From Herpetosiphon sp. NSE202 (GTDB lineage: Bacteria; Chloroflexota; Chloroflexia; Chloroflexales; Herpetosiphonaceae), in assembly GCF_042688385.1 (NCBI RefSeq), contig NZ_JBHUPY010000007.1, forward strand, positions 386,110-416,341: 30,232 bases of DNA. Reading direction: 5' to 3'. The notes beneath the pieces are model-generated. The model made no database searches. It saw only the letters and a program-made list of their open reading frames with translations, and had not been told where the DNA came from. Both the position numbers and the translations under genes were made by a program. Within the stretch, counting starts at the first letter, position 1. Each line of letters begins with the position of its first letter. Positions 1 through 30,232 of the stretch are shown piece after piece.

Positions 1-139
1 ATTTGTGGGATTGAACAGCTACGCCAAGCGTTTGCAAACCGCGATTCAAGCAGTATTGGCCAATGGGCCACACACGCCCGACCTTGGTGGCACAGCCACG
101 ACGGCTGAGGTGGTGCAAGCAGTGATTGACCAGTTTTGA
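1..139 (+). CDS. 3' end of an isocitrate/isopropylmalate/homoisocitrate dehydrogenase family gene (partial; frame 2, stop TGA 137-139)
   Basis: Translation of frame 2 is FVGLNSYAKRLQTAIQAVLANGPHTPDLGGTATTAEVVQAVIDQF*. The ...TPDLGG.ATT.E....AVI... C-terminus is typical of the beta-decarboxylating dehydrogenase family (LeuB/Icd/Hicdh). Its position directly upstream of a lysW-lysX cluster suggests homoisocitrate dehydrogenase. Confidence 0.5.
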   Translation, partial: FVGLNSYAKRLQTAIQAVLANGPHTPDLGGTATTAEVVQAVIDQF

Positions 140-458
140 TCCACGAAGAGCACGAAGAGGGTACGAAACCACGAAGAACGCGAAGAGCACGAAGAGGATG
201 AGGCTCTAGGCTTTTGGCTAGCGGAAGAATTAACTCCCCTCGCCCGCGTTCAGTGGGCGAGGGGCTGGGGGTGAGGGGAATTCTAGCTCCCTACCACTAC
301 CCTTGAAACCACGAAGAACGCGAAGAGCACGAAGATGATGAGGCTCTAGGCTTTTGGCTGTTGGCTAGCGGAAGAATTAACTCCCCTCGCCCGCGTTCAG
401 TGGGGGAGGGGCTGGGGGTGAGGGAATATCACCCCTAACTAATAAAGGATTACAAACA
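100..458. repeat. Composite intergenic repeat array. CACGAAGAR 9-mers, then a ~140-bp unit present twice in tandem (about 165-304 and 305-445). Each unit ends in a GC-rich hairpin element CCCCTCGCCCGCGTTCAGTGGGCGAGGGGCTGGGGGTGAGGG (236-278 and 383-427).
   Basis: Direct reading of the sequence. The second copy differs by a 7-bp internal duplication (gttggct) and a few substitutions; one substitution (C to G) breaks the hairpin stem. Confidence 0.8.
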
Positions 459-626
459 ATGAGCGCACAATGCCCAGAATGTGAAGGAACGATCGTGTTG
501 GCGGCAGATATTTTGGATGGCGAGATTGTGCCATGCCCCGATTGTGGCGCAGAACTCGAAGTCGTCAGCCTGAACCCAGTTGTTTTGGAATTAGCACCCG
601 AAGTCGAAGAAGACTGGGGCGAGTAA
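459..626 (+). CDS. lysW: Amino-group carrier protein LysW (55 aa). It is missing from the ORF track because it is under 60 aa.
   Basis: ATG at 459 translates to [55 protein letters not shown]. It has an N-terminal CxxC...CxxC zinc ribbon and an acidic C-terminal tail ending EDWGE, the hallmark of LysW/ArgW. It lies 7 nt upstream of lysX. Confidence 0.85.
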
Positions 627-633
627 GGGAGTT

Positions 634-1503
634 ATGGCAATGCGTGTGGGTATGTTATGTTCCCGAATTCGGGTTGAAGAAAAGCTGCTGATCAATGAAT
701 TTGAGCGGCGCAATGTCCAATTTGAACGAATTGACGATGATCAGACATGGTTTGATTTGAATGCTTTACAAGCTAATCGTCAAGTGCGCGCGCAATTTCC
801 TGATGTGATTATTGAGCGTTCGTTGCACCATGGTCGGGCCTTGTACACCCTCAAAACCTTGAACGATGCTGGCATTCCAACGGTCAACAATTATAACGTG
901 GCCTTGACCTGTGGCGATAAATTTTTGACGACCCAAGCCCTGTTGCGCAACGGCGTACCATCGCCGCGCTGTTTGCTGGCCTACACCCAAGAATCGGCGC
1001 TCGAAGCGATCGAAAGTTTGGGCTATCCGGTGGTGTTGAAGCCAGTTATTGGCTCGTGGGGTCGCTTGGTCTCGAAGATCAACGATCGCGAAGCAGCCGA
1101 AGCAGTGCTTGAACACCGCGACACCTTGGGCAATTATCAGCACGCAATTTTCTACATTCAAGAATATATCAACAAACCAGGTGGCCGCGATATTCGCGCT
1201 TTTGTGGTTGGTGATGAGTGCATCGCGGCGATTTATCGCACCAGCGGCCACTGGATCACCAATACTGCACGCGGCGGTGAGGCTTCCAATTGCCCAATTA
1301 CGCCAGCCTTGGCCGATATTTGCATCGGTGCGGCCAATGCGGTTGGTGGCGGCGTGGTTGCAATCGATGTTTTCGAAACAGCCGAAGGTCGCTATTTGGT
1401 CAACGAAGTTAATTACACCATGGAATTTCGCAACAGCATTAGCACAACTGGGGTGAACATTCCTGAACGCATTGTTGATTATGTGCTAGCTCAAGCGCAA
1501 TAG
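634..1503 (+). CDS. lysX: RimK-family ATP-grasp ligase LysX (alpha-aminoadipate--LysW ligase; alternatively the ArgX paralog)
   Basis: 289 aa. Shows the RimK/LysX pattern (IRVEEKLLI..., [22 protein letters not shown]-grasp core). Sits immediately after lysW and before lysY. Putative SD AAGGGA lies 6 nt upstream. Confidence 0.85.
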
Positions 1504-1533
1504 TTGGCGCGCTGTAGCCAAATTGAGGTTGTT

Positions 1534-2568
1534 ATGCTTTCAGTTTCGATCGTTGGTGGCTCTGGCTATGTCGGTGGTGAATTGCTGCGTTTATTGTTGG
1601 GGCATCCCCACGTCGAGGTGCGTCAGGTCACCAGCGAACGCTTAGCAGGCCAATATGTCTACAGCACCCACCCCAATTTGCGCGGGCGCAGCGAGTTGCG
1701 CTATAGCCCACAAAGCACGTTGGAGCCGTGTGATGTGTTAATTTTGGCCTTGCCGCATGGCTCTGCTGCCAAAAACATTGAGCATTATGCTGGCCTTGGC
1801 CAAGCAATCATCGATTGTTCAGCCGATTTCCGCTTGCGCGACCCAGAAGCCTATAGCCGTTGGTATGGAGAAAAACACCCAGCCCCGCACTGGCTTGAGC
1901 GCTTTGTCTATGGCTTACCGGAGCTGTATCGCGAGCAAATTCGCGCAACCCGCTATGTCAGCGGTGTGGGCTGTAATGCAACAGCGATTAACTTGGCCTT
2001 GTTGCCTTTAGTCAAGGCTGGATTAATTGATCAAACCAAGCCAGTGGTGGCTGAAGTCAAAGTTGGTTCGTCCGAGGCGGGCGCGGTTGCCAACGATGGC
2101 AGCCATCATGCCGAACGCTCAGGCGTGGTGCGCTCGTTTGCACCAGTCGGCCATCGCCACACCGCCGAAATTGTACAAGCGCATGGGCTTGAAAATGTGC
2201 ATATTTCGATCACGTCGGTGGAAATGGTGCGCGGTGCTTTAGCAACATGCCACGTTTTTACTCAAGGCTCAGTCAACGAACGCGATCTCTGGCGAGCCTA
2301 TCGGGCAGCCGCCGCCGAACAACCATTTTTGCGCATTGTTCATGATCGCACTGGCTTGCACCGCCATCCTGAGCCAAAAATCTTGGCTGGCAGCAATTAT
2401 GCCGATATTGGCTGGGCGCTCGATGAAACCACAGGCCGCGTAGTTGCGCTCTGCGCACTCGATAACTTGATGAAGGGTGCAGCCGGAGCCGCCATCCAAT
2501 GCTTGAATTTGATGCATGGCTTCGACGAAAGCGTAGGGCTTGAGTTTAGCGGCTTGCATCCGGTTTAA
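1534..2568 (+). CDS. lysY: [LysW]-aminoadipate 6-phosphate reductase LysY (ArgC-like)
   Basis: Rossmann N-terminus MLSVSIVGGSGYVGGELLRLL and catalytic Cys motif GCNATA, as in the ArgC/LysY family. The track ORF starts at 1504. ATG 1534 is preferred because GAGG lies 8 nt upstream and the Rossmann motif starts there. Confidence 0.8.
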   Translation: MLSVSIVGGSGYVGGELLRLLLGHPHVEVRQVTSERLAGQYVYSTHPNLRGRSELRYSPQSTLEPCDVLILALPHGSAAKNIEHYAGLGQAIIDCSADFRLRDPEAYSRWYGEKHPAPHWLERFVYGLPELYREQIRATRYVSGVGCNATAINLALLPLVKAGLIDQTKPVVAEVKVGSSEAGAVANDGSHHAERSGVVRSFAPVGHRHTAEIVQAHGLENVHISITSVEMVRGALATCHVFTQGSVNERDLWRAYRAAAAEQPFLRIVHDRTGLHRHPEPKILAGSNYADIGWALDETTGRVVALCALDNLMKGAAGAAIQCLNLMHGFDESVGLEFSGLHPV

Positions 2569-2862
2569 GAACATAGAACATAGAGCATAGAACATAGGGG
2601 TCGGGGGTCAGGGGCTGGGGATCGGTGGTCGGGGATCAGGGTTTCGAGGATACTAAGCTGGATTTTAACGCAGCGGCGCAGAGAGGGAGAATAATTATGA
2701 AGGATGAGAGATGAAGGGTGAAGGGATATGCTCTCCACATTGAGCTTGACGTGCTTCGTGCCCTTCGCGTGCTTCGTGGTTTCATTCTTGGGAATCTTTG
2801 CGTCCTTCGCGGTTCCTAGCCTTAGCGTGCTTCGTGCTCTTTGTGGATCAAAAAGGAACAAC
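2569..2862. repeat. Composite repeat insertion between lysY and lysZ. AACATAG x4 heptamers, then G-rich heptamers (GGGGTCGGGGGTCAGGGGCTGGGGATCGG...), then reverse-orientation CTTCGTG nonamer-type repeats.
   Basis: Direct reading. The same modules occur at 100-458, 12428-12781 and 29880-30232. The track lysZ ORF (2728..) has a spurious 45-aa N-terminal extension that translates these repeats. Confidence 0.8.
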
Positions 2863-3666
2863 ATGTTTGTGATAAAAATTGGCGGCGCGGCGGGCATTGA
2901 TTATAGCAATCTTTGCGCTGATATTGCCCAGCTTGCCGCCCAAGGCCAACCGATTGTGCTGTTTCATGGTGGTTCGGATGGAGCCAACACACTTGGCGAG
3001 CAACTTGGCCATCCGCCGCGCTTCATCACCTCGCCGTCGGGCCATACCAGCCGCCAAACTGATCGGCGCACGCTCGAAATTTTCATGATGGCGACAGCCT
3101 TGCTCAATCGCCAGCTGGTTGAGCACTTGCGGGGCTTGGGAGTCAACGCTTTCGGTTTATCGGGCCTCGATGGAGGCTTGCTGCAAGGCACCCGCAAAAC
3201 CAATGTTCGGGCGGTCGAAAACGGACGGGTGCGCGTGATTCGCGACGATTGGACAGGCAGCATCGACCAAGTTAATCGTGGATTATTGCAAATGTTGCTG
3301 AGCGCTGGCTATCTGCCAGTCATCGCACCATTGGCGGTCAGCGCTGCGGGCGAACCATTAAATATTGATGGAGATCGCGGCGCGGCCAGTGTGGCAGCTG
3401 CACTCGAAGCCGAAACCTTGTTGCTGCTAACCAATGTGAGTGGCTTATATCGTAATTTTCCCGACGAAAGCAGCTTAATCGCGCATTTGCCGCGCACAGA
3501 ATTAGCCCACGCCAGCGAAAAACTCGCCCAAGGCCGCATGAAGAAAAAATTGCTTGGAGCACAAACCGCGCTAGAGGCTGGCGTGCGCCGCGTGATTATC
3601 GGCGATGGCCGCAGCGAGCAACCAGTCAGCGCAGCGCTCGCAGGCAATGGAACAATCATCGAATAG
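2863..3666 (+). CDS. lysZ: [LysW]-aminoadipate kinase LysZ (ArgB-like amino-acid kinase)
   Basis: MFVIKIGGAAG... amino-acid-kinase N-terminus. SD AAAGGAA lies 6 nt upstream of ATG 2863. 267 aa. Confidence 0.8.
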   Translation: MFVIKIGGAAGIDYSNLCADIAQLAAQGQPIVLFHGGSDGANTLGEQLGHPPRFITSPSGHTSRQTDRRTLEIFMMATALLNRQLVEHLRGLGVNAFGLSGLDGGLLQGTRKTNVRAVENGRVRVIRDDWTGSIDQVNRGLLQMLLSAGYLPVIAPLAVSAAGEPLNIDGDRGAASVAAALEAETLLLLTNVSGLYRNFPDESSLIAHLPRTELAHASEKLAQGRMKKKLLGAQTALEAGVRRVIIGDGRSEQPVSAALAGNGTIIE

Positions 3667-3685
3667 GATTTGGCAGGAACAAACA

Positions 3686-4867
3686 ATGACTGAACAACAA
3701 CCTTTTGCCAGTTTGGAAGCTGCTCATAGCGCGGGCGTGTATGCCAAGCGCCCAATTACCTTGGTGCGCGGCAGCGGCGCAACCCTCTACGACGATCACG
3801 GTCTGGCCTATCTCGATTGTGGCTCAGGGATTGGGGTTGCCAACATTGGCCATTGCCATCCAACAGTGGTGCAGGCAATTGCCGAGCAAGTAGCAACCCT
3901 AACGGTTTGCCCAGAAGCCTTTCACAACGATCAACGCGCCTTGTTACAAGCCGAATTGGTGCAATTATTTCCTGCCGAATTTCAACGGGTATTTTTGTGC
4001 AATAGCGGCACCGAAGCCGTCGAAGCAGCCTTGAAATTTGCCCGCATGGCCACAGGCCGCACGGCAATCGTCGCAGCCATGCGAGGCTTTCATGGCCGTA
4101 CCTTTGGAGCCTTGAGCGCAACCTGGGAGAGCCATTATCGCGAGCCGTTTATGCCGCTCGTGCCCGATTTTAGTCATATTCCCTACAATAATATCGAGCG
4201 TTTGCAAAGCGCTATAACCGAACAAACCGCCGCCTTGATTATCGAAATTGTCCAAGGCGAAGGCGGAATTCGGCCTGCAACCGCCGAATTTTTGCAAGCA
4301 GCCCAAACAATTTGCCGCGAACGCGGAGCCTTGTTGATTCTCGATGAAGTGCAGACTGGCTTTGGCCGCACGGGGCGCATGTTTGCATTTGAACATGTTG
4401 GCTTGCAGCCTGATTTGGTCTGTTTGGCTAAGGCCTTGGGTGGCGGCATGCCAATGGGCGCGGTCGTGATCAACCAGCGAGTTGGCGAATTGGCGATTGG
4501 CACGCATGGCTCGACCTTTGGCGGCAATCCCTTGGCATGCGCGGCGGCGCGGGCTGCGCTCAGCGTGATTCGCACCGAACAATTGGTTGATCAAACTGCC
4601 GAAAAAGGTGCGTGGTTATTGGCTCAATTGCAAGCGATTCGTTCGCCCAGAATTCGCGAAGTGCGTGGCTTGGGCTTGATGATCGGCATTGAACTCAAGG
4701 AAAAAGTTGCGCCCTATCTGCAAAAATTAATGAACCAGCATCAGATTATTGCGCTGAATTCTGGCAGCAACGTGTTGCGCCTGCTCCCGCCGCTGGTCAT
4801 TTCGTGGCCAGAATTAGAACGCGTGGTGGCAACCCTGCGCAGCATGTTTGAGGAGCCAGCAGCATGA
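3686..4867 (+). CDS. lysJ: [LysW]-aminoadipate-semialdehyde/acetylornithine-type aminotransferase LysJ (class III PLP aminotransferase)
   Basis: Class-III aminotransferase motifs (GSGATLYDDHG, NSGTEAVEAALKFAR, DEVQTGFGRTG, the PLP-Lys region LAKALGGG). ATG 3686 has an AGGA SD. The track start 3605 would overlap lysZ by 60 nt. Confidence 0.8.
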   Translation: MTEQQPFASLEAAHSAGVYAKRPITLVRGSGATLYDDHGLAYLDCGSGIGVANIGHCHPTVVQAIAEQVATLTVCPEAFHNDQRALLQAELVQLFPAEFQRVFLCNSGTEAVEAALKFARMATGRTAIVAAMRGFHGRTFGALSATWESHYREPFMPLVPDFSHIPYNNIERLQSAITEQTAALIIEIVQGEGGIRPATAEFLQAAQTICRERGALLILDEVQTGFGRTGRMFAFEHVGLQPDLVCLAKALGGGMPMGAVVINQRVGELAIGTHGSTFGGNPLACAAARAALSVIRTEQLVDQTAEKGAWLLAQLQAIRSPRIREVRGLGLMIGIELKEKVAPYLQKLMNQHQIIALNSGSNVLRLLPPLVISWPELERVVATLRSMFEEPAA

Positions 4868-5919
4868 ACGATCAACAAGCTTTGCAATTAATTGAGGCCA
4901 TGGTGGCAACACCCAGCGTTTCTGGCGACGAGGCCGCGCTGGCCCAACTCTTGGTCGAGCAGATGCACCACGCTGGCTTTGATGCGCACGTTGATGCGGT
5001 TGGCAACGCAGTTGGGATGATTGGAGCTGCTGCTGAAACCGTCGTGCTGCTTGGGCATATGGATACTGTGCCAGGATATATTCCAGTTGAAGTGCGCGCT
5101 GGCGAGTTGTGGGGGCGCGGTTCAGTTGATGCCAAAGGCTCGTTAGCGACGTTTATTGCTGCTGCCGCCCGCGCTCATGCTGAGCAACGCTTGGCCTATC
5201 GGGTGATTGTGGTTGGCTGCGTCGAAGAAGAAATTGCATCATCCAGAGGTGCGCATTTTATAGCCCAAACCATGGCCGCGCCAACGTGGTGCATTGTCGG
5301 CGAGCCAAGCGGCGCAGACCGCCTAACCTTGGGCTACAAAGGCAATTTGCGGGCACAAATTCGCATCGACCAGGATGCAGCCCATTCGGCCCACGCCAGC
5401 CAGACCGCCGCCGAGCATGGCTGTGAATTGTGGAAAAGCATCGCCCAGCACGCCAATGAGTTTAACCAAGGCCGCGAGCGAGCCTTCGATCAGCTGCTAC
5501 CAAGCCTTGTGCGCATCGAATCTGGTGGCGATGGCCTGCGCGATTGGTGCGAGTTGCTGGTCAATGCCCGCTTGCCCTTGGATCTTGATCCGGCGGCCTA
5601 TACTGCGCTGCTGCAACAACTATTGCCCAATTATGCCCACTTGAACATTAGCGGCGCAACGCCTGCCTACAGTAGCGAGCGCACATCGAGCATAGCGCGG
5701 CGTTTTGGGCGAGTATTTCGCGCCAAAGGCCAGCAACCGCGCTATGTGCAAAAAACTGGCACCGCCGATATGAACGTGGTTGGGCCAGCCTGGGGTTGCC
5801 CTGTTGTTGCCTATGGCCCAGGCGATGCCGCGCTCGATCACACGCCACACGAGCGTTTGCCGTTGGCCGAGTATTTACAGGCGATTAACGTGTTGACCGC
5901 TGTCTTGAGCAACGAGTAA
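4864..5919 (+). CDS. lysK: [LysW]-lysine hydrolase LysK (ArgE/DapE-type M20 metallopeptidase)
   Basis: M20 motifs (HMDTV, GRGSVDAKG, EEE.SS.G). The start overlaps the lysJ stop in ATGA, which implies translational coupling. Confidence 0.75.
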   Translation: MNDQQALQLIEAMVATPSVSGDEAALAQLLVEQMHHAGFDAHVDAVGNAVGMIGAAAETVVLLGHMDTVPGYIPVEVRAGELWGRGSVDAKGSLATFIAAAARAHAEQRLAYRVIVVGCVEEEIASSRGAHFIAQTMAAPTWCIVGEPSGADRLTLGYKGNLRAQIRIDQDAAHSAHASQTAAEHGCELWKSIAQHANEFNQGRERAFDQLLPSLVRIESGGDGLRDWCELLVNARLPLDLDPAAYTALLQQLLPNYAHLNISGATPAYSSERTSSIARRFGRVFRAKGQQPRYVQKTGTADMNVVGPAWGCPVVAYGPGDAALDHTPHERLPLAEYLQAINVLTAVLSNE

Positions 5920-6846: not shown

Positions 6847-7105
6847 GATTCCCCTCACCCCAACCCCTCTCCCGTCCAACGGGCGAGGGGCTTTCATGCC
6901 GTGGTTCTACCTCAAGGCGTGGTAAAACGTGGGATAGGGGCTGCTTACGAGGGTCGGTTGTTAAGATCCCCTCACCCCAACCCCTCTCCCGTCCAACGGG
7001 CGAGGGGCTTTTGGTTGTGTGGGTTTGGCATGATTGGTGGTGAACATTGGTGCTCCCCCTCGCCCGCGTTTTCGTGGGAGAGGGGGCTGGGGGGTGAGGG
7101 AATCT
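6847..7105. repeat. MITE-like cluster of three GC-rich hairpin elements. Two reverse copies (6848-6890, 6967-7009) and one forward copy (7055-7100) that faces the second reverse copy.
   Basis: Reverse copies read CCCCTCACCCCAACCCCTCTCCCGTCCAACGGGCGAGGGG. The forward copy reads CCCCTCGCCCGCGTTTTCGTGGGAGAGGGGGCTGGGGGGTGAGGG. Each contains a 10-bp stem hairpin. The cluster lies between convergent mscL and the lipoprotein gene, so it is positioned to act as a bidirectional terminator. Confidence 0.8.
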
Positions 7106-10948: not shown

Positions 10949-12346
10949 TTAGCCAAGCACGCGGTTAAGGTTAGCTTCGAGTTTTTGGCGTAAATCACGG
11001 CGCACTTGCTCGCCAGTTGCAGGCGTGGTCAGTAAACCAGCCACAATCCCCAAAATAAATGAGCGCAGGCCGGTGCGTGCGCGGCGGCCTTTGCGGCCAA
11101 CCTCGGTGGTTACTTCACCAGTTTTATGGGCGATTGTTTGGGCTGCTTGCTGGGTCGTTTCGCCAACGATATGCGCAGTTTCTTTGGCGCGGCCACCAAC
11201 AACCGAGGCAGCATCTTTAGCGCGCTCGCCAACAACCGAGGCGGTTTCTTTGGCCCGCTCGCCAACTACAGTTGCAACATCCTTGGCCCGTTCGCCAACC
11301 ACTGAGGCCGTTTCTTTGGCGCGGCCACCAACAACCGAGGCTGCGCCTGCAACTGCTGGAATAACCGTTGCGCTTACATCTTGGGCCTTGGCGCTCACGG
11401 TTTGGGCAACCGAACGCAAGGCATCGGGCGCATGCTCACGAGCTTCTTTAGCGCGTTCGCTGGTTGTTGCCAAAAATTCTTGCACAATGCCACTCAAGCG
11501 TTGCACCAAATCGCTGGCTTGATCACGAGCATCAGCGCCTTTGCTGCTCGCCACATCAACCGCGCGATGGCGTAAATCGTCTGCTTGTTCAAGTACAGTT
11601 TCGCTGCTGCTGCTCAAACGATCGCGTACTTCATTCAAAATGGTTTTAGCCTTATCAGCCAAGGTTTCGCCTTGATCCATCGCCTGTTCGCGCACATCGG
11701 CCAAACGGCTACGGGCATCGGCGCTTTTGCTGCTTGCAGCTTTCACCGTCTGATGGCGCAAGTCGTCGGCTTGCTCAAGCACGGTTTCGCTGGTGCTGCT
11801 CAAACGATCGCGCACTTCATTCAAGATATTTTTGGCTTTATCGGCTAAGGTTTCACCTTGATCAACTGCTTGATCGCGTACATCGGCCAAACGGCTTTTG
11901 GTTTGGTCGCCCAAATCGTTGGCCCGATCGCGGCTGGCGGTAGCAACCGCAGCTAAGCCAGCAGTTGCAGCGCTCAACAACGAACTACCTTTATCGCGAC
12001 CTTGAGCGGCTTTTTTGCCAAGTTGGTCAACAGCATGTTCAACTTGATCGCGGCCAGTTTCCAAGCTCGCATTCAAGCGTTGATTGGCGTTCTTGCCAGC
12101 TTTGCGCAATTTCTTTTGCTCGCGTTTCAGTTCTTTGCGGGCTTGTTTGCTGAGGCTATGCAAATAGCTATTGGCATCGGCAGCCCGATGTTCAACTTGA
12201 TCGCGGAGATTTTCGGTGAGCAAGGCGACTTTTTCGCCCAAGCTGGTTGGATGATTGCGGCGGCTGCGTGCGCCCAATACCCCACCAATCACACCACCAG
12301 CAATCAGTGCGGCAGTCAATAATGGTTGTTCTTTTTGCTCATTCAT
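10949..12346 (-). CDS. YtxH-domain-anchored LEA/apolipoprotein-like repeat protein
   Basis: Start at MNEQKEQ with an AAAGGAG SD. The track start 12427 is a GTG inside the repeat flank. N-terminus LLTAALIAGGVIGGVLGARSRR and C-terminus FILGIVAGLLTTPATGEQVRRDLRQKLEA are both YtxH-like (TM plus G.ELR) motifs. The interior has five 11-aa repeats (ASVVGERAKET) and a duplicated block of about 62 aa (ETLADKAK.ILNEVRDRLSS.SETVLEQADDLRH...). It is highly charged with many Ala, Asp and Arg, and is predicted helical. Confidence 0.6.
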   Translation of the reverse strand: MNEQKEQPLLTAALIAGGVIGGVLGARSRRNHPTSLGEKVALLTENLRDQVEHRAADANSYLHSLSKQARKELKREQKKLRKAGKNANQRLNASLETGRDQVEHAVDQLGKKAAQGRDKGSSLLSAATAGLAAVATASRDRANDLGDQTKSRLADVRDQAVDQGETLADKAKNILNEVRDRLSSTSETVLEQADDLRHQTVKAASSKSADARSRLADVREQAMDQGETLADKAKTILNEVRDRLSSSSETVLEQADDLRHRAVDVASSKGADARDQASDLVQRLSGIVQEFLATTSERAKEAREHAPDALRSVAQTVSAKAQDVSATVIPAVAGAASVVGGRAKETASVVGERAKDVATVVGERAKETASVVGERAKDAASVVGGRAKETAHIVGETTQQAAQTIAHKTGEVTTEVGRKGRRARTGLRSFILGIVAGLLTTPATGEQVRRDLRQKLEANLNRVLG

Positions 12347-12427
12347 AATCAATAACTCCTTTGCTCTACGATTCGAGCACGTATCTGCCAAACCTATAGC
12401 AAACCCTATACCAAGCGTTTGATCCAC

Positions 12428-12781
12428 GAGGGGTCAGGGGCTAGGGATCAGTTACGGAAACCACAATGAGGGATCAGGGGTCAGAGGTTAGGGATCAGTT
12501 ATGGAAACCGCGAAGGACACGAAGATCGCGAAGTTATTTTTTGCCTCAGATTGATCCACGAAGCACACGAAGAGCACGAAGAACCGGAACCACGAAGGAC
12601 GCTAAGATCACGAAGTTATTTTTTTGCCCAGATTTCCCTGATTATATTTACAATAACCCATCGCCCAAAGCCAATAGTCAAGAGCCTTTCATCCCTCATC
12701 CTTCATAATTCGTCCTTAAAAGAAAGAGGATCGAGCTACTACTAGCCCAATCCCCTATGCTCTACTCTATGTTCTATGTTC
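12428..12781. repeat. Composite repeat array. G-rich heptamers with an AGGGATCAGTTAYGGAAACC duplication, then CACGAAGNR nonamers, then reverse AACATAG heptamers.
   Basis: Direct reading. The module order mirrors 2569-2862 in the opposite orientation. Track ORFs 12466..12708 and 12551..12745 lie entirely within the repeats and are likely spurious. Confidence 0.8.
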
Positions 12782-13747
12782 TTAGTTCGTTACGGTTGGA
12801 ACAGGGCTGCTTGGTGGACTGAGCACACTTGCAGCAACCCAGCCACGGCCTGTGCCATCGGGCAACTGAATTTGATACCAATCGCCTGATTGACCAAGCA
12901 CTTGCACGCTATCGCCAGCCTTGAGCTGGGCAATCGGGTCGTTATTGGTATTTGGCGCAGGCCGCACATTGGCGGTTGGAGCGGTTACGCTAGCGGTTGC
13001 TGGAGCCACGGTTGGCGTAGCAGCAGTATCCACGGTTGGCGTTGCCTCAGCCTCATCATCTTCTGGGTCTTCGCCCTCAGCGGTATCTTCGCTAACCGGA
13101 GTTGCAGTGGGCAAAATTGGCGTAACCGCCGTGCCCCACGCTGCATGATTTGATTGATTAAGTGCGCCACGCACGGTCGTAATTCGTTCATTGGCCCAAA
13201 ATAAGGCAATAAACGCTACTGCAACTAATAACGCAATCCGAATTGGGTCAGAAAGCCGCAGGATGGTGCTACTGCGTTGCATCTCACGCAAGGCGGCAGC
13301 AGCGCTGGCGGCAACTGGCTCGCCCCAACTGGTGCGGCTGCGATCATCGCGGGCAACCCGCCGCAAGGCCAGCAGGGCCCGACCATCGCCAACTTTGCCC
13401 AAAGCGCGCACCGCAGCCCAACGCACGTTGCTGTTGGGGTGATTGAGTGCTTGGCTCAAGGGGCGGCTGGCCCGACCATCGCCAATTTGGCCCAAGGCTT
13501 CGGCGGCTCGATAGGCCCGCAACCACGGATATTTTGGATCAAGCGCTTCGATCAGCAAGGGAACTGCTTGCGCCCCCAAGCGAATCAAATCGTCTTCTGC
13601 TCGTTCGTGGTTGGGATCGTTGGCATTATCTAAGGCAACGACCAACTGGCGCAATTGCGCATCGGCAACCTGTGGCGGAGCTGCTTCGGGCCGGGCCTGC
13701 GATGGCTGCGGCTGGCGCGGCTGTGATGGTGGTACTTGATCAGTCAT
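12782..13747 (-). CDS. HEAT-repeat (PBS-lyase-like) / TM / SH3b-domain protein
   Basis: N-terminus is Pro/Gln-rich. Tandem HEAT-like repeats follow (...VPLLIEALDPKYPWLRAYRAAEALGQIGDGRA...NSNVRWAAVRALGKVGDGRA...). There is one TM (IALLVAVAFIALFW). The C-terminus is SH3b-like (LKAGDSVQVLGQSGDWYQIQLPDGTGRGWVAASVL). The start is ATG 13747 or GTG 13798; neither has a clear SD. Confidence 0.55.
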   Translation of the reverse strand: MTDQVPPSQPRQPQPSQARPEAAPPQVADAQLRQLVVALDNANDPNHERAEDDLIRLGAQAVPLLIEALDPKYPWLRAYRAAEALGQIGDGRASRPLSQALNHPNSNVRWAAVRALGKVGDGRALLALRRVARDDRSRTSWGEPVAASAAAALREMQRSSTILRLSDPIRIALLVAVAFIALFWANERITTVRGALNQSNHAAWGTAVTPILPTATPVSEDTAEGEDPEDDEAEATPTVDTAATPTVAPATASVTAPTANVRPAPNTNNDPIAQLKAGDSVQVLGQSGDWYQIQLPDGTGRGWVAASVLSPPSSPVPTVTN

Positions 13748-14006
13748 ATCAGCGAATCTCGAATATGCATTAATTAATAAGGATGGTGTTGCCAGCACTC
13801 AGGCCAATTGCAACCCTCGCATTGTACCAGAGAAAGCAAGTTCAAATATCCACAGCACAATCCTGACCAGCAAACCAATCAGCAGCTGGTCGCTTTGCCA
13901 ATTGAATCAAATGGGCTATCCAAAGCGAATATGGTACAATTGATCTATATGCAGCCCGTTGGCGCGTTCGCAAACGGCTGTTTTTTTAGGGCAAACACGA
14001 GAGTTT

Positions 14007-19217: not shown

Positions 19218-19246
19218 CCCCCTCTCCTGCATTTAGTAGGAGAGGG
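19218..19246 (+). terminator. Degenerate copy of the GC-rich hairpin element, placed as a terminator after the Wzy_C/TPR gene
   Basis: CCCCTCTCCT-gcatttagt-AGGAGAGGGG. 10-bp stem, 20 nt after the stop codon. Confidence 0.5.
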
Positions 19247-21898: not shown

Positions 21899-21900
21899 CC

Positions 21901-22776: not shown

Positions 22777-22797
22777 CCCAACGCAATGCTTCTACTC

Positions 22798-24709: not shown

Positions 24710-24724
24710 ATGCGGAGGCATTGA

Positions 24725-25207
24725 ATGGAACCAATTGTGCATGTTGTGCTAGCCTTGTTGCGGCGGGAAAATCAGGTGTTATTGGTGCGTCAACAAGGCC
24801 AAAATGGGAGTTATTGGAGCATTCCTGGTGGCAAAGTCGAGGTTGGCGAGCATTGGCTCGAAGCCTTCGCCCGCGAGGTGCGCGAAGAAACAGGCTTGGT
24901 TGCCGCACCCAGCACTTTAGCTTATATGTCGCAAGTCTATTTGGTTGGCAAAGCCCAGACTGTGGTTTTTTGCGCCTTCGAAGGCACAACCGAGGGCGAA
25001 ATCGCGATCAACGATCCCGATAACGAGATCGAAGAATGTGCATGGTTTGATTTGCACGAGATTCCGACTATGGTGCAAGCGTTGCGCTGGCCAAGCACCC
25101 GCCTGCCCTTGCTCGATTATCTGGCGGGCAACGTCGAGGCAGGTCGAGTTTGGGCTTTTCGCTCGAATGAAGACAATAGCGAACAATATTTATTGCAGGC
25201 AATTTGA
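24725..25207 (+). CDS. NUDIX hydrolase
   Basis: The Nudix box GGKVEVGEHWLEAFAREVREETGL matches GX5EX7REVXEETG. GGAGG SD. Confidence 0.8.
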   Translation: MEPIVHVVLALLRRENQVLLVRQQGQNGSYWSIPGGKVEVGEHWLEAFAREVREETGLVAAPSTLAYMSQVYLVGKAQTVVFCAFEGTTEGEIAINDPDNEIEECAWFDLHEIPTMVQALRWPSTRLPLLDYLAGNVEAGRVWAFRSNEDNSEQYLLQAI

Positions 25208-25214
25208 TTGGAAA

Positions 25215-25246
25215 TCCCTCGCCCGCTCTAGGTGGCGGGCGAGGGA
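25215..25246. terminator. Bidirectional terminator built from a minimal copy of the GC-rich hairpin element
   Basis: TCCCTCGCCCGC-tctaggtg-GCGGGCGAGGGA. 12-bp perfect stem between convergent genes. Confidence 0.65.
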
Positions 25247-25253
25247 ACTTCAA

Positions 25254-26036
25254 CTAGCCACGCAAGAGCGATTGACCGCCGTCGATCCAGATTTCGGTGC
25301 CGGTGATATGGCTTGAGGCATCGGAAGCCAAAAAGCCAACCAACTGGGCAACTTGCTCGGACGTGCCAGGCTTGCCGTGGGTCAAGGGAATATCGCCCTC
25401 GGGAAATTCGGCGGGCACTTGCACCCGTTCAATTGCCCGTTTTTCGGTGCTTTCTTCGATGCTGGTTTCGATTGCGCCAGGGCAAATTACATTGACGCGA
25501 ATATTGAATTGCCCAAGCTCCAAGGCCAACATTTTGCTCATGGCAACTTGGCCCGCTTTGGTCGTCGAATAGGCAGTTGCGCCAGCATTGCTGAAGGTAC
25601 GTGTGCCATTGATCGACGAGGTAACAATAATCGAGCCGCCCTGTTTTTTGAGCGCTGGCACCGTTTTTTGAATCGTCAAGAAGGTGCCAGTTAAATTAAT
25701 ATCGATCGTCTTTTGCCATTCTTCGAGCTTTAATTCCTCAATTGGTGCCCACACGCCGTTAATTCCAGCGTTGGCAAACACACAATTTAGCTTGCCCCAT
25801 TGTTTGAGGGTTTGCTCAACGGCTTTTTGCATGTCATCAGGGTCGCTAATATCGGCAATGATGCCTAAGGCTTCGCCACCAGCTTTTTTAATCGCCTCAA
25901 CCGTTTCGTTTAGCTCATCTTCGGTGCGGCCAAGCGCGGCGACTTTAGCGCCATGCGCCGCTAAATGTAAGGCGGCTGCCTTGCCAATGCCCGAACCTGC
26001 ACCCGTCACCAACGCCACTGTATCGTTTAAATGCAT
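25254..26036 (-). CDS. SDR family oxidoreductase (FabG-like short-chain dehydrogenase)
   Basis: TGAGSGIGKAAA (the TGxxxGIG motif), NAG, and the catalytic S...Y...K region. 260 aa. AAGGAG SD on the minus strand. Confidence 0.85.
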   Translation of the reverse strand: MHLNDTVALVTGAGSGIGKAAALHLAAHGAKVAALGRTEDELNETVEAIKKAGGEALGIIADISDPDDMQKAVEQTLKQWGKLNCVFANAGINGVWAPIEELKLEEWQKTIDINLTGTFLTIQKTVPALKKQGGSIIVTSSINGTRTFSNAGATAYSTTKAGQVAMSKMLALELGQFNIRVNVICPGAIETSIEESTEKRAIERVQVPAEFPEGDIPLTHGKPGTSEQVAQLVGFLASDASSHITGTEIWIDGGQSLLRG

Positions 26037-26208
26037 GAGTCTGCTCCTTCGTTCAGATCACAATCTTCACAGCAGGCTATTGCAAGTTGCGTGCAAAGAA
26101 TCCGCCTTGCGACTGAGGAGCACTCCATCATGCGATGGGCTAGCTTTTGCAACAAGCGGCTTAAACTGAACCGTACTCACCCACCCAATCCAGCTAGAGG
26201 AGTCCACG

Positions 26209-27219
26209 GTGCCGATTATTGATGTTCGTAATTTAGGCAAAACCTATCGCACGATTGAAAAAGAAGGCGGGGTCAAAGGCGCAGTTAAGGCCCTCTTTCG
26301 GCCCCAATATCGCGAAAAAGTGGCTGTCCACGATTTAAATTTCCAAATTGATGCCGGCGAAATTGTCGGCTACATCGGGGTTAATGGCGCTGGCAAATCG
26401 ACCACAATTAAAATGTTAACTGGCATTCTCTACCCAACCACTGGCTCGATTTCGGTTTTGGGCCACGATCCACAGCGTGAACGGGTGGCCAATGCGCGCA
26501 ATATTGGCGTAGTCTTTGGCCAGCGTAGCCAGTTATGGTGGGATTTAGCGCTAATCGAATCGCTCAATTTGGTTGCCAATATTTACGAAGTTGAGCCAAG
26601 CCGCTACAAACAATTGCTTAGCCATTTTGCTGAGGTTTTAGAGCTTGATGAAATATTAAAAACGCCAATTCGCTCGATGTCGCTGGGCCAGAAGATGCGC
26701 GCGGAATTAGCCGCAACCTTCATCTACGAACCTCAAGTTGTCTATCTCGATGAGCCAACCATTGGCCTCGATGTGATGGTTAAGCAGCGGATTCGCGAAT
26801 TTATCAAAGATTACAACCAAACCCACAATACAACCCTGATGCTCACAACCCACGATTTAGGCGATATTGAGCAACTTTGTTCGCGGGTGATCATTATCGA
26901 TAATGGCAGCAAAGTCTACGACGGCCCATTGAACGCAATTAAACAGCAATTTGGCAAATTTCGCACAATTACCTTTGAAACCAATCACCCAATTACAAGC
27001 GTGAATTTGCCACCAGCCTGCGAGCAATTGAGCCTGAGCGAGCACATATTGGAATTGCGCTTTGATCGTAGCCAAATTAGCGCCAGCCAAGTTGCAAATG
27101 CTGTGATGCAGCAGCTCGATGTCGCCGATTTTACGCTCAATGAGCCAGATTTAGAGAGCATTATTAAGCATTTATATCAGAATCCGACTGCCTATAATGA
27201 GGTTGGCGCTCGTGGATAA
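26209..27219 (+). CDS. ABC transporter ATP-binding protein
   Basis: Walker A GVNGAGKST, signature MSLGQKMR, Walker B VYLDEPTIGLD. GTG start with a GAGGAG SD. Confidence 0.85.
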   Translation: MPIIDVRNLGKTYRTIEKEGGVKGAVKALFRPQYREKVAVHDLNFQIDAGEIVGYIGVNGAGKSTTIKMLTGILYPTTGSISVLGHDPQRERVANARNIGVVFGQRSQLWWDLALIESLNLVANIYEVEPSRYKQLLSHFAEVLELDEILKTPIRSMSLGQKMRAELAATFIYEPQVVYLDEPTIGLDVMVKQRIREFIKDYNQTHNTTLMLTTHDLGDIEQLCSRVIIIDNGSKVYDGPLNAIKQQFGKFRTITFETNHPITSVNLPPACEQLSLSEHILELRFDRSQISASQVANAVMQQLDVADFTLNEPDLESIIKHLYQNPTAYNEVGARG

Positions 27220-28024
27220 ACTCTATTATCGGCTGCGGACTTACCGTAGCGTGGTTGGGATGAATATTAAAGAAATCCTCGCCTATAATTTTTGGTTTTG
27301 GTCGCAAGTTGGTGCCCATGTTTTACTCACAATTGCCTATATTTCATTTTGGAAAGCATTGTATAGCGAACGTGATTCAATTGCTGGCTTAGATATGCAA
27401 CAAACCCTAACTTATATCATCTTGGCACGCATTGTTATGCCATTGGTGCAATGGGGCTATACCCAAGAATTTGGCTTTTGGATTCGCGAAGGTACAATTT
27501 CAAGCGAATTATTGCGGCCTGTCGATTTTCAAGAACGGATTTATATTGGTCATCTAACACGCACGTTTGTGTCATTAGCACAGCAATTAATTGTGGTTGG
27601 CAGCCTTGCACTATTTGTGTTTAAGATTAGTTTACCAACTGATCCCTTGGTTTGGCTTAGTTTTCTGATTTCGTTATTGCTTGGCTGTAGCATTTTATTT
27701 TGCTTCGATTGGATTTTTGGCTGTATTGCTTTTTATTCAACTGAGGTTTGGGGCTTGCAAGTTGTCCGTGGTTCAGTGTTACTGCTATTTAGTGGCGTGC
27801 TTTTACCACTAACTATGTTGCCAACCCAATTACAAACGATTGCTAAATGGCTACCATTTGCCCAAAGCGTTTCAATTCCTGTATCGATATTAAGTGGTAT
27901 GACTCCATTAAGTAATCTTGGCAGCATTTGGCTCCAACAATTGGCTTGGCTTAGTGTGATGTTTATCCTTTCACGCTTGATGTTTAATTTCAGCGTGCGC
28001 AAAATAACTGTACAAGGCGGCTAA
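27197..28024 (+). CDS. ABC-2 family transporter permease 1 (6 TM)
   Basis: Six hydrophobic helices. Overlaps the ATPase gene. Alternative start GTG 27212, again within GTGGATAA overlapping the upstream stop. Confidence 0.65.
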   Translation: MRLALVDKLYYRLRTYRSVVGMNIKEILAYNFWFWSQVGAHVLLTIAYISFWKALYSERDSIAGLDMQQTLTYIILARIVMPLVQWGYTQEFGFWIREGTISSELLRPVDFQERIYIGHLTRTFVSLAQQLIVVGSLALFVFKISLPTDPLVWLSFLISLLLGCSILFCFDWIFGCIAFYSTEVWGLQVVRGSVLLLFSGVLLPLTMLPTQLQTIAKWLPFAQSVSIPVSILSGMTPLSNLGSIWLQQLAWLSVMFILSRLMFNFSVRKITVQGG

Positions 28025-28026
28025 AT

Positions 28027-28815
28027 ATGCTCCGTTATACAAAACTCTATTGGTATTTTGTTATCCAGCGTTTCAAAATTTTGATGGAATATCGGCTTAA
28101 TTTTTTCATTGGCTCGATTTCAACCTTGCTCTTTCAAGGCGCAAGCCTTGTTGCATTGTGGGCGGTTTTACGTCAAGTTCCGAGCATCCAAGGCTGGACA
28201 TTCGAGCAAATTTTATTAATTTATGGTTTATTGACCTTATCCAAGGGGATTAATCATCTCTTTGCGGATAATCTTTGGGTGGTTGGTCGCGATTATATTC
28301 GGCCTGGCCAATTTGATCGCTTTTTAGTGCGGCCAATTAATCCCTTATTCCATTTATTAGCTGATCGAATTTGTCACGATGCAATTGGCGATTTTGTTGT
28401 TGGTTTGAGTTTAGTCAGCTATGCAATGGTGCAATTGCAATTGCCAATTAATCTAGCAAGCATTGGTTTTATCATATTAATGGTAATTAGCGGTGGCGTA
28501 ATTTTCATTGCGCTAAATCTAATTACTGCGGCAACCTCATTTTGGATTATGGATTCGATTGCTGTAACCAACGTGGTGTTTCATACCAATGAATTTGCTC
28601 AATATCCGCTGACGTTTTATCATCGCTCAATCGGCATGGTCTTGACGTGGCTCATTCCATATGGCTTTGCCTCGTATTATCCCGCTAGCTATTTACTTGG
28701 CCACGAGATTGGCTGGATGGCGTGGCTGGCTCCGCTGGTGGCGCTGGTTTGCATCACGATTGCCTATAAAGTTTGGCTGTTGGGGCTGCGGAATTATGGT
28801 AGCACTGGCTCGTGA
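28027..28815 (+). CDS. ABC-2 family transporter permease 2 (6 TM)
   Basis: Paralogous architecture to the preceding permease, starting 3 nt after its stop. Confidence 0.65.
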   Translation: MLRYTKLYWYFVIQRFKILMEYRLNFFIGSISTLLFQGASLVALWAVLRQVPSIQGWTFEQILLIYGLLTLSKGINHLFADNLWVVGRDYIRPGQFDRFLVRPINPLFHLLADRICHDAIGDFVVGLSLVSYAMVQLQLPINLASIGFIILMVISGGVIFIALNLITAATSFWIMDSIAVTNVVFHTNEFAQYPLTFYHRSIGMVLTWLIPYGFASYYPASYLLGHEIGWMAWLAPLVALVCITIAYKVWLLGLRNYGSTGS

Positions 28816-28864
28816 GCCAATTTCTACGCTAGAATAATGCCAATTTAATCACAAGGAGAGCAAG

Positions 28865-29509
28865 ATGAGCATGGATGGTAGGTATGACGTTGAGGCTGAA
28901 ATTATCTTCGAGCACGAAGACCCTGAGCGCGCTTTGCTCATGGCATTAGGCTTCACTCACGGCGAGTTACATTTTAGTCCCGATTCTCATCAAGGCTGGG
29001 ATATTCGCTTCAGTGAAGAGCACAATCGCACGCTATTGCCAAGTGGGGCAATTCTGGCCGATTTTGCATTTCTCAACCCCCATTATCAACTGGGAGAAAT
29101 GGCGGTTGGCAGAAAGTTTTGGATTCGCCGAGGATCACAACATCAAGGGACGGGCCATGTAACCCAAATTTTGAATTTAGAGCAATCTGCTCGCCAACGA
29201 GTGAATTATGATCTGCCGGTTGAAGTAACGTTTTTACAAGCGCCGATTAATAATCCGTCGCGATATTACTCGTTATTGTATGGCAAACACTTAAATACTT
29301 ATGATTTGCATCAGGGCGTAATCTCCGTCTTACGCAATACTCCATTCATTCAGATTAAAAAGCGACAGAAGAAACATCTATCGATAGAAGCAAGCCTTAA
29401 TTCAACTATGCTGCATCAACCACTAAACGCCATGTATCAGCGGCTAAGTCAGTATCATGAGTGGATTATTCATGAGATTTATGCGAATGATGGGCAAGCA
29501 ACTTCATAA
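28865..29509 (+). CDS. Hypothetical soluble protein (214 aa)
   Basis: Excellent SD (AAGGAGAG). No TM. I recognise no motifs. Local GC is lower than the window average. Confidence 0.5.
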   Translation: MSMDGRYDVEAEIIFEHEDPERALLMALGFTHGELHFSPDSHQGWDIRFSEEHNRTLLPSGAILADFAFLNPHYQLGEMAVGRKFWIRRGSQHQGTGHVTQILNLEQSARQRVNYDLPVEVTFLQAPINNPSRYYSLLYGKHLNTYDLHQGVISVLRNTPFIQIKKRQKKHLSIEASLNSTMLHQPLNAMYQRLSQYHEWIIHEIYANDGQATS

Positions 29510-29578
29510 CTAGACAATGCAATTCTTGCCACGGGCCAAGACATTCAGCCGCTTAAAACTAGTTACGGATCGATAGAC

Positions 29579-29863
29579 GTGAACTTAATCGTTGAGGTCA
29601 GACGCATTGTCAATGCCAAAGAAAGCCTGAAAGGATATTTGGGTTTTACCTACGGCACGCTCTTTGAGGGTGAGAATTATAAATTGAATGGCAAAGAACG
29701 CCTGTTGATGCTTGAAGAAGGCCAAACAGTTACAGTTGGCCAGCCAGTGCGCGGCCATCTCGATCTGTATGGCATTGCTGAGCACATCGCAGCCTTGCCA
29801 AAAGGCACAAAATTTGTGCTGCGCGCTGAGGAACAGACCATTGCCAAGGGTCGGGTGATTTAG
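29579..29863 (+). CDS. Hypothetical small protein (94 aa, GTG start)
   Basis: ORF only; no recognisable motifs. AT-rich relative to the window. Confidence 0.35.
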   Translation: MNLIVEVRRIVNAKESLKGYLGFTYGTLFEGENYKLNGKERLLMLEEGQTVTVGQPVRGHLDLYGIAEHIAALPKGTKFVLRAEEQTIAKGRVI

Positions 29864-29923
29864 GATTATTGGATATGAGGTTTTAAGAACATAGATGTAT
29901 TGGTACATGAGGTTAACCACGGC

Positions 29924-30064
29924 ATGATCCCCTCACCCCAACCCCTCTCCCGTGGCGCGGGCGAGGGGCTTTCATCCCGTGGTTCTTGCACAATACGTTG
30001 GTAAAAACCGGTGCTCCCCTCGCCCGCGTTCAGTGGGAGAGGGGCTGGGGGTGAGGGCATGATC
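29924..30064. repeat. MITE-like element. Two copies of the GC-rich hairpin module in inverted orientation (29928-29970 reverse, 30015-30057 forward), bounded by CATGATC at both ends.
   Basis: The left arm reads CATGATCCCCTCACCCCAACCCCTCTCCCGTGGCGCGGGCGAGGGGCTTTCATCCCGTGGTTC and the right arm is its imperfect reverse complement. The organisation matches 6967-7100. Confidence 0.75.
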
Positions 30065-30147
30065 CTGGTTGCCAATCCAACGCACCAGTACACATAGAGC
30101 ATAGAACATAATCCTAACAATCTGTGAAAATCTGTGGCGAAAAATCG

Positions 30148-30232
30148 TTCTTCGTGTTCTTCGTGTTCTTCGTGTTCTTCGTGTTCTTCGTGTTCTTCGT
30201 GTTCTTCGTGTTCTTCGTGTTCTTCGTGTTCT
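30148..30232. repeat. Perfect 9-bp tandem repeat (TTCTTCGTG, about 9.5 copies) running off the window edge
   Basis: Direct reading. It is the reverse complement of the CACGAAGAA units in the other repeat arrays. Confidence 0.9.

Follow-up and report, generated by a model that had tools for sequence, protein, structure and literature searches.

The intergenic spacers of a 30,232-nt segment of the chromosome of Herpetosiphon sp. NSE202 (hereafter the window; 51% G+C) hold clusters of short repeated words, and here we focus on the make-up and possible origin of these clusters, which we call arrays. The genes around them are ordinary. The end of icd is followed by the lysine operon of the LysW pathway (lysW-X-Y-Z-J-K), and the window further encodes a glyoxalase, MscL, a GNAT protein, a sortase, an apolipoprotein/YtxH-like repeat protein, a HEAT/SH3 protein, an SMC-like ATPase, a Wzy/TPR protein and others. 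The encoded LysZ shares 94% identity with its H. gulosus counterpart and is grouped in one 90% cluster with LysZ of H. aurantiacus, H. giganteus, H. llansteffanensis and H. geysericola.

Four intergenic arrays (100-458, 2569-2862, 12428-12781 and 29880-30232; arrays 1 to 4) had been reported in a first-pass annotation made from the letters alone. They are present where it placed them, far above chance: in the window, CACGAAGAR has 17 matches against 0.33 expected, a count reached in none of 100 shuffles, and AACATAG has nine against 2.4. The same annotation had built every array from four modules, namely AACATAG heptamers, G-rich heptamers, CACGAAGAR nonamers and a GC-rich hairpin. The modules are real, but they occur two or three to an array, never all four together. 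Array 1 is composed of nonamers, GC hairpins and GGCTNTN heptamers; array 2 of AACATAG, G-rich heptamers and reversed nonamers; array 3 of G-rich heptamers, nonamers and reversed AACATAG; and array 4 of AACATAG, a GC-hairpin pair and reversed nonamers. The set of modules is larger by at least four (GGCTNTN heptamers, GARGGAT heptamers, AACGCAGNGGCGCAGAG and ATCTGTG-N3-ATCTGTG), the word TTGATCCACGA recurs at array ends, and a fifth array with three GC hairpins (6847-7105) was absent from the earlier description. Nonamers are grouped in threes behind an AACC or GATC lead and run freely solely in the expanded tract at 30147-30232. With units of 7-9 nt, placed head to tail or irregularly mixed, as against identical repeats of 24-48 nt set evenly apart by unique spacers, the arrays are, as had been concluded before, not clustered regularly interspaced short palindromic repeats (CRISPR). 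Their features are given below; the BoxC/PIT/triplex motif and the arms of GxxExxY genes named there are described in the paragraphs that follow.

136-196, plus strand: nonamer arms of array 1, TTGATC-CACGAAGAG-CACGAAGAG and then GAAACC-CACGAAGAA-CGCGAAGAG-CACGAAGAG.
165-448, plus strand: tandem duplication with a period of 140/147 bp, the unit being a nonamer triplet, GGATGAG, GGCTNTN heptamers and a BoxC hairpin.
237-277, plus strand: copy of the BoxC/PIT/triplex motif, CCCTCGCCC-N9-GGGCGAGGG-GCT-GGGGGTGAGGG; a second copy lies at 384-424.
2570-2597, plus strand: four AACATAG/AGCATAG heptamers of array 2, beginning right behind the lysY stop (TAA-G).
2597-2641, plus strand: six G-rich heptamers GGGGTCN of array 2, of G-quadruplex type, on the sense strand 29 nt past the stop codon.
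2667-2683, plus strand: AACGCAGCGGCGCAGAG, a CGCAGAG-type word like those in the arms of other GxxExxY subfamilies.
2697-2725, plus strand: GARGGAT-type heptamers, ATGAAGG ATGAGAG ATGAAGG GTGAAGG.
2752-2851, minus strand: reversed nonamer arms of array 2, in CTTCGTG/CTTCGCG sets that terminate in CTTTGTGGATCAA just ahead of the ribosome-binding site (RBS) of lysZ, an end kept in five species.
6851-7100: fifth array, between the convergent mscL and a gene of 365 aa, with BoxC on the minus strand at 6852-6889 and 6969-7006 and a BoxC-like copy on the plus strand at 7057-7100.
12419-12498, plus strand: part of array 3, TTGATCCACGA and then two blocks of G-rich heptamers.
12509-12535, 12557-12583 and 12591-12617, plus strand: three nonamer triplets of array 3, two of them followed by TTATTTTTTGCC-CAGATT.
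12691-12780, minus strand: reversed GARGGAT and AACATAG heptamers of array 3; AACATAG on this strand begins right behind the TAA-G stop of the HEAT/SH3 gene (12782-13798).
29895-30093: 199-bp miniature inverted-repeat transposable element (MITE) with a BoxC inverted pair (29930-29967, minus; 30017-30057, plus) and imperfect terminal inverted repeats (TIRs) ATGTATTGGTAC.../...CACCAGTACAC (ATGTATTGGTAC/GTGTACTGGTGC).
30120-30136, minus strand: ATCTGTGAAAATCTGTG, a CACAGAT-type word nearly identical to the 3' arm of GxxExxY locus L212.
30147-30232, minus strand: perfect (CACGAAGAA)x9.6 microsatellite that runs off the end of the window.

Two of these tracts had been singled out before. For the microsatellite at the window edge, Tandem Repeats Finder (TRF) returns a 9-bp unit in 9.6 copies at 100% identity over 30147-30232, in agreement with the earlier reading. 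The tandem unit of 140 bp described in array 1 was also recovered, its two copies matching over about 120 nt with two substitutions and one 7-bp indel.

Orthologous regions were compared in H. gulosus, H. aurantiacus DSM 785, H. llansteffanensis, H. geysericola and two metagenome contigs. The icd-lysW, lysY-lysZ and apolipoprotein-like/HEAT-SH3 spacers are long (182-524 nt) in every species compared, and across species the three share one vocabulary with varying length and module content. In the lysY-lysZ spacer, the window and H. geysericola have AACATAG units, then G-rich heptamers, then nonamers in reverse, where H. aurantiacus and H. gulosus have an inverted GC-hairpin pair and two nonamers. 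Only the spacer ends are constant, with TGA-TCCACGAAG after icd and CTTCGTGGATCAAA-AGGA (the GGATCAA end) before lysZ in five species. Since the same spacers and modules are found in independent assemblies of four other species, an assembly artefact was rejected. Modules also recur at unrelated loci (L027, L044, L063 and L120) in three Herpetosiphon species, which bears out the first-pass view of a dispersed modular family of extragenic repeats. From the shared vocabulary, the differing content and the unrelated loci it follows that the family is genus-wide and dispersed and that the spacers turn over quickly. Copy number differs as well: the lysY-lysZ spacer has four AACATAG units in the window and 3+1 in H. 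geysericola, and six against four G-rich units. These differences between species make the behaviour of a variable-number tandem repeat (VNTR) plausible, and to that extent the proposed use in strain typing stands. The TGA stop of icd lies inside the repeat end word TTGATCCACGAAG / TTGATCC (window 136-146) in five species, including loci L001, L002, L005 and L006; the repeat thus abuts the end of icd and possibly supplies it.

The family had been taken to be specific to this genome, a view that could not be upheld for either the nonamers or the hairpin. One genome per species (185,579 species, 596 Gb) was scanned for CRCGAAGNNCRCGAAGNNCRCGAAG, for which by our own estimate about two matches would arise by chance. 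The triplet yACC-(CACGAAG-NN)x3 was found in at least 116 stretches from more than 15 phyla, with hosts among Planctomycetota, Verrucomicrobiota, Acidobacteriota, Desulfobacterota, Myxococcota, Gammaproteobacteria, Nitrospirae, Cyanobacteria, Chloroflexota and others; among the matches listed, nearly all consist of yAC-C and exactly three units. At least 60 convergent inverted pairs of nonamer arms were present, mostly 12-130 nt apart. In these pairs the heptamer core is invariant and the two spacer bases (NN) match no better than chance; it is therefore the repeated 7-mer that is conserved and not a perfect stem, and a simple model of a perfect RNA stem was discarded on this ground. Most nonamer copies are arm-only, MITE-like hairpin derivatives. 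With an arm defined as a yACC lead followed by two to four tandem units of 8-9 nt with the core C[AG]C[AG][AG]AG, the window holds arms at 165-196, 305-336, 12509-12535, 12557-12583 and 12591-12617, and a reversed one at 2752-2783. No Rfam family and no paper was found for the nonamer sequences, and literature searches with the raw sequences returned unrelated primers or nothing.

Some stretches from other bacteria go beyond the simple arm. In a metagenome-assembled genome (MAG) of Vicinamibacterales (L077, 6547-7572), seven units about 155 nt apart have a common opening, a 20-nt lead and then a CACGAAG triplet; these copies are a tandem array of a larger composite unit. MAGs of Acidobacteriota and Burkholderiales (L032, L072, L091) carry CACGAAG-NN microsatellites of five to eight or more units, some of them in long open reading frames (ORFs), which parallel the expanded tract at 30147-30232. 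In a Chloroflexaceae MAG (L109, 1430-1620), a nonamer set and a long AGGTGTN/GGGTATC heptamer tract are tandemly duplicated, and the composite order of nonamer and then G-rich heptamer is common to this MAG and Herpetosiphon.

What nonamer arms may be arms of is indicated by a locus of Desulfobacteraceae (L055), where they bracket an ORF of 123 aa that belongs to TIGR04256, 'GxxExxY protein' (E = 1e-44). The 5' arm stands directly before the start codon and the inverted arm behind the stop codon, and the same junction of 5' arm and gene is found at L095; at L020, L059, L105 and L111 decayed N- and C-terminal GxxExxY remnants lie between intact arms. Of more than 8000 relatives of the protein, the best 120 are 80-95% identical and come from different phyla, many of them on contigs shorter than 1.5 kb. 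In six of six over-called homologues, a nonamer-coded peptide (HHEEHEGTRR, TTKGTK, PRRARRTRR) stands right before MEFDEL. The arrangement extends to more distant members. For 80 metagenomic loci at 53-85% identity, the upstream 100 nt were compared with the downstream 115 nt; in 60 of 77 the two flanks share an inverted repeat (18/24 or better), against 10 of 77 in the direct-orientation control. Arm cores are specific to the subfamily (CACGAAG, CACGGAG, CACAGAG, CGCAGAG, CACAGAT, CATGAAG, CACCAAG, CAGTGAGG and others), and the third arm unit provides an AAGGAG-like Shine-Dalgarno sequence. Distant GxxExxY genes of isolates (Bacteroides finegoldii, Bernardetia, Sphingomonas, Gemmatirosa) are similarly bracketed, with the cores CACAGAG, CGCAGAG, CACGGAG and CGCGAAG. 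Among the operon junctions that they occupy are radA|x|FAD protein, ade|x|manC and fabD|x|fabG, the last being empty in a sister Sphingomonas. In the window, the words that match GxxExxY arms are the nonamers, AACGCAGCGGCGCAGAG (2667-2683) and ATCTGTGAAAATCTGTG (30120-30136).

As to the GxxExxY family itself, a 2012 survey listed PF13366 as of unknown function with multiple transfers (PMC3424549); apart from this one survey, the mentions of GxxExxY, PF13366 or TIGR04256 that we found in the literature were incidental, and none described the arms. By sequence there is no relative in the PDB, and the AlphaFold model is poor, with a shallow alignment and a predicted local distance difference test score (pLDDT) of 47. 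GxxExxY genes are co-oriented with their neighbours in 73% and 84% of cases; adjacent bacterial genes ordinarily share direction in about 70-75%, and co-orientation was therefore discarded as evidence. Within one uncultured population with the order dcd | GxxExxY | yfhO, a 172-bp copy consisting of arm, remnant and arm lies directly upstream of the full cassette in some samples only (L127, L129 and L132 versus L123-L126), a polymorphism of an internally deleted copy that suggests recent duplication or deletion. The 24 contigs with P0195 represent one organism in many samples and do not contribute independent insertion sites. Among 2.9 million viral contigs, eight GxxExxY relatives were found; one IMG/VR contig (L228) has a CACAATG/CACAAAG/CACGAAG arm before the start codon.

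Judged by its sequence, the GC hairpin is the known BoxC/PIT/intrastrand-triplex motif, and it is thus pan-bacterial as well. It fits the consensus CCCTCNCCC-N3-6-GGGNGAGGG-N3-GGGNGAGGG, to which the window holds six exact matches, with none expected, once loops of 3-12 and 2-5 nt are allowed; all copies are intergenic. The motif (TM_ECO) has been described from E. coli and more than 260 other genomes (Holder et al., 2015, PMC4666352). Matches at 83-90% (blastn against plasmids and chromids) came from Xanthomonas, Azospirillum, Cupriavidus, Pseudanabaena and Cyanobacterium, with 17 places in one Cupriavidus replicon. Holder et al. did not find the motif with mobile elements, nor any common function of flanking genes (PMC4666352), whereas here BoxC-type hairpins stand on one or both sides of genes for DUF559, a Vsr-like endonuclease, in eight of eight hand-picked loci: Azospirillum, Deinococcus, Sphingomonas, Sinorhizobium, Methylobacterium, E. 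coli ycjD and two cyanobacteria with a CCCCC/GGGGG variant. This association is a lead and not a result. At the E. coli locus (L226), ycjD is followed by two BoxC copies, and the module adjacent to it is present in 4907 of 5426 complete E. coli genomes, at a median of 10 places per genome. In the Pseudanabaena galeata plasmid pPg_02 (L133, 1180-1250), BoxC-type modules lie in frame within a 4.8-kb coding sequence (CDS) annotated as 'DUF559 domain-containing protein' and read ..PLSRSGRGAGGEG.. / ..LAPLSRSGRGAGGEG..; either the insertion is tolerated or the annotation has been mis-joined. Two simple GC hairpins in the window follow convergent or co-oriented gene ends (19220-19245, CCCCTCTCCTGCATTTAGTAGGAGAGGGG; 25215-25245, CCCTCGCCCGCTCTAGGTGGCGGGCGAGGG); their stem is BoxC-like but the third block is missing, and they may be either terminators or BoxC copies in decay.

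One pair of BoxC hairpins in array 4 is part of a larger element. The segment 29895-30093 is non-coding, shorter than 500 bp and bounded by TIRs, as expected of a MITE, and it folds as a single long hairpin (z = -8.5). It is nested in an AACATAG tract, with ATAG, possibly CATAG, at both flanks in the manner of a target-site duplication, and excising it together with one ATAG restores a perfect AACATAG-AGCATAG-AACATAA tract. The lysY-lysZ spacer provides both states of an orthologous site: in H. geysericola (L006) its AACATAG tract holds an element with the same termini, and in array 2 of the window the tract is uninterrupted. A filled site was likewise seen at L005. Another copy is found inside a GGCTNTN tract of H. 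llansteffanensis.

The heptamers are treated as microsatellites similar to the short tandemly repeated repetitive (STRR) sequences, being tandem and variable in copy number. TRF gives a period of 7 at 2568-2641, 12469-12498 and 12766-12782. Most AACATAG tracts of Herpetosiphon begin right behind TAA-G (or AAAG) and run into G-rich heptamers, and the G-rich tracts have at least four G-runs. The G-rich units of Herpetosiphon are placed as reported for GGGNATC repeats, which lie either on the sense strand, no more than 50 nt past a stop codon, or on the antisense strand shortly before a start (PMC4692102); in array 3 the G-rich heptamers lie antisense to the genes on either side, immediately before the start of the gene at 10949-12427 (minus). 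The G-rich unit is reminiscent of the GGGGCTGGGGGTGAGGGG tail of BoxC, a likeness that we offer as no more than a hint. Nine viral contigs likewise carry AACATAG triplets. In one phage group (L239, L241, L243 and L244; IMG/VR), intergenic (GTTCAAG)n(AACATAG)n stands just upstream of the RBS every 1.7-1.9 kb.

Taken together, these findings lead us to think that the arrays are probably debris of selfish cassettes, shaped by nesting and slippage, that is, mosaics of repeat words of three origins in permissive spacers. Repeat words would accumulate in a few such spacers at gene and operon junctions of Herpetosiphon. The CACGAAG triplets and the CGCAGAG and CACAGAT words would be solo arms of the brackets around GxxExxY genes (TIGR04256/PF13366, of the PD-(D/E)XK type), a descent that we infer from the likeness of the words. 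The GC hairpins would be BoxC/PIT elements, which bracket DUF559 genes in other phyla and stand here solo or as the inverted pair of a MITE, and the AACATAG, GGGNTCN, GGCTNTN and GARGGAT tracts would be STRR-like microsatellites. Elements would insert into one another, and tracts as well as whole units would expand and contract, presumably by replication slippage or unequal exchange. Nesting and such changes in length would together account for orthologous spacers that keep their position and lose their content. The host would seem to have no need of the arrays, and the cassettes are presumed to be mobile. A broader and tentative idea, which may well prove wrong, is that GxxExxY (PF13366) and DUF559 (PF04480), both small nucleases of the PD-(D/E)XK fold, are the cargo of unrecognised mini-cassettes with subfamily-specific inverted arms (tandem 8-9-mers in one case, BoxC/triplex hairpins in the other). 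Such cassettes might spread between phyla and decay to arm-only hairpins, from which BoxC/PIT and the pan-bacterial CACGAAG hairpins would originate, and the Herpetosiphon arrays would then be exceptionally dense graveyards of arms.

Several observations weigh against an origin as cassette debris. No GxxExxY match better than E = 2 (tblastn) and no DUF559 CDS was found in 172 kb of Herpetosiphon DNA, and a resident cognate nuclease is therefore hypothetical. Arms of any one window spacer all have the same orientation, with no inverted partner within about 20-450 nt, so that the window copies are solo or tandem arms rather than intact brackets. In paired arms the NN bases do not complement one another more often than chance would give, and for the cassettes neither a target-site duplication nor a mechanism was established. 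The DUF559 sample comprises no more than eight hand-picked loci, and no source was found for the heptamers. The Shine-Dalgarno-like third unit of the arms speaks against pure neutrality. Moreover, arrays 2, 3 and 4 have a constant polarity, [stop]-AACATAG-G-rich-...-reversed nonamers-[RBS], which, together with a spacer position kept in five species, could reflect selection.

These last two points leave room for another explanation, which we regard as unlikely, in which the arrays are host-selected cis elements at operon junctions, acting in mRNA processing or stability like REP/BIME (bacterial interspersed mosaic elements), as G-quadruplex or triplex modulators, or as translation insulators, their similarity to nuclease arms being secondary. 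The persistence of the same three long spacers in five species would suit such a role, as would the fixed orientation to transcription, with AACATAG at TAA-G stops and reversed nonamers ending in GGATCAA before the RBS. The placement of G-rich units as reported for GGGNATC (PMC4692102) and the Shine-Dalgarno-like arm unit point the same way. Yet the lysY-lysZ spacer has had its content exchanged wholesale between the window and H. aurantiacus; array 2 has an ordinary RNA fold (z = -1.4), promoter-like and terminator-like sites are not enriched over shuffles, and Rfam has no match in the window at the gathering threshold, permissive runs giving solely sub-threshold generic or miRNA-like hairpins. 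PIT/BoxC elements are reported to show no promoter or terminator activity in E. coli (PMC4666352). The fold of array 1 (z = -3.75) is due solely to its local BoxC hairpins.

Chance resemblance has also to be considered. If the nonamer and CGCAGAG words were independent purine-rich microsatellites that came to look like GxxExxY arms by convergence, the lack of any GxxExxY gene or remnant in 172 kb of Herpetosiphon DNA would be expected; the perfect tract of 9.6 copies shows that slippage alone can make nonamers, and the neighbouring heptamers are clearly microsatellite-like. Convergence would nevertheless have to reproduce the organisation in three units, the AACC lead and the CACGAAG/CGCGAAG alternation common to the arms of more than 15 phyla, the nonamer-heptamer composite of the Chloroflexaceae MAG, and a CACAGAT word at 30120-30136 that matches the arm of L212 almost base for base, and we consider it improbable. 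The least credible account, to which we give hardly any weight, is the one from the first-pass annotation, in which a genome-specific composite REP-like family seeds tandem expansion and the copies at 2569 and 12428 invert the 10 kb between them. It was right that the modules are real, dispersed and found in both orientations; tandem expansion exists, although that the elements seed it is surmise, and BoxC-containing loci are reported to be more rearranged among E. coli strains (PMC4666352). However, besides the family not being confined to one genome, arrays 2 and 3 are hardly inverted copies that could flip the intervening segment: their longest exact inverted identity is 17 nt and their best extended inverted match 65 nt at 75%, and the genes between them have the same order and orientation in the window, H. 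aurantiacus, H. llansteffanensis and H. geysericola. The idea of an inversion is without support.

With the arrays read as cassette debris, an apparently private family is recast as a named element (BoxC/PIT), STRR-like microsatellites and an unnamed pan-bacterial element. To our knowledge, BoxC/PIT elements have gone unexplained since the 1990s. Two puzzling kinds of intergenic repeat may thus gain a testable origin as leftover arms of tiny nuclease cassettes in operon junctions. Should the nucleases turn out to target the arms of their own cassettes, they would represent a new and very small kind of mobile or homing element, and two large families of unknown function would gain a first function. 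There are practical consequences as well, since the arms break assemblies, as seen in the many GxxExxY contigs shorter than 1.5 kb, and create spurious ORFs (HEGHEEHE.., PLSRSGRGAGGEG..), and they can be used as typing VNTRs. A further kind of repeat in the window has no relation to the intergenic modules: the apolipoprotein/YtxH-like gene (10949-12427, minus) has in-frame coding repeats at 11178-11341 and 11525-11896, with a 33/66-bp unit in 4.9 copies and a 186-bp unit in two copies (82% identity).

How do these elements compare with known systems? The window hairpins share with BoxC/PIT the three blocks CCCTCNCCC, loop, GGGNGAGGG, N3 and GGGNGAGGG, as well as the intergenic, multi-copy occurrence in both orientations. 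Their first loop is 7-9 nt long versus 3-6 nt in the E. coli consensus, and one pair in the window is packaged within a TIR-bounded MITE. That element in turn resembles other MITEs in being short and non-coding, in its imperfect TIRs, in the hairpin formed by the whole element, in the short flanking duplication and in the filled and empty sites. Unlike a typical MITE, however, its interior is a BoxC inverted pair, and copies with the same TIRs have different interiors (L006).

The heptamers are reminiscent of the STRR of heterocystous cyanobacteria and of the GGGNATC and GGGGA(C/T)T repeats of Xanthomonas and Nostoc (Rehm et al., 2015, PMC4692102), which are likewise tandem 7-nt units, intergenic and variable in copy number. 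The host here belongs to the Chloroflexota, and the units are different ones (GGGGTCA/GGGATCA, AACATAG, GGCTNTN and GARGGAT). A comparison of the window units with the published ones (GGGNATC, GGGGAYT and STRR1-3) and with their host range in cyanobacteria and xanthomonads gave no match. The heptamer tracts here are concatenated in a fixed order with words that are not microsatellites. The TAACTGA repeats of marine Beggiatoaceae (MacGregor, 2015, PMC4679880) are also heptamer direct repeats just upstream of start codons in distant lineages, but their unit is another one and no link to cassette arms has been reported. A 'mobile promoter' that H. aurantiacus shares with three distant genera has also been described (PMC3488235).

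A parallel to the proposed cassettes is offered by REP/BIME and REPIN-RAYT. There, too, extragenic palindromic units, often inverted doublets or hairpins, are found at convergent-gene or operon sites, and there is a link to a small, widely transferred gene of nuclease type. In contrast to REP, the nonamer arms are direct repeats of three tandem 8-9-mers, which are not palindromic and have no GTAG head. Moreover, the gene found here is a PD-(D/E)XK nuclease (GxxExxY) located between the arms, whereas in REPIN-RAYT it is an IS200-like Y1 transposase that stands beside the cluster.

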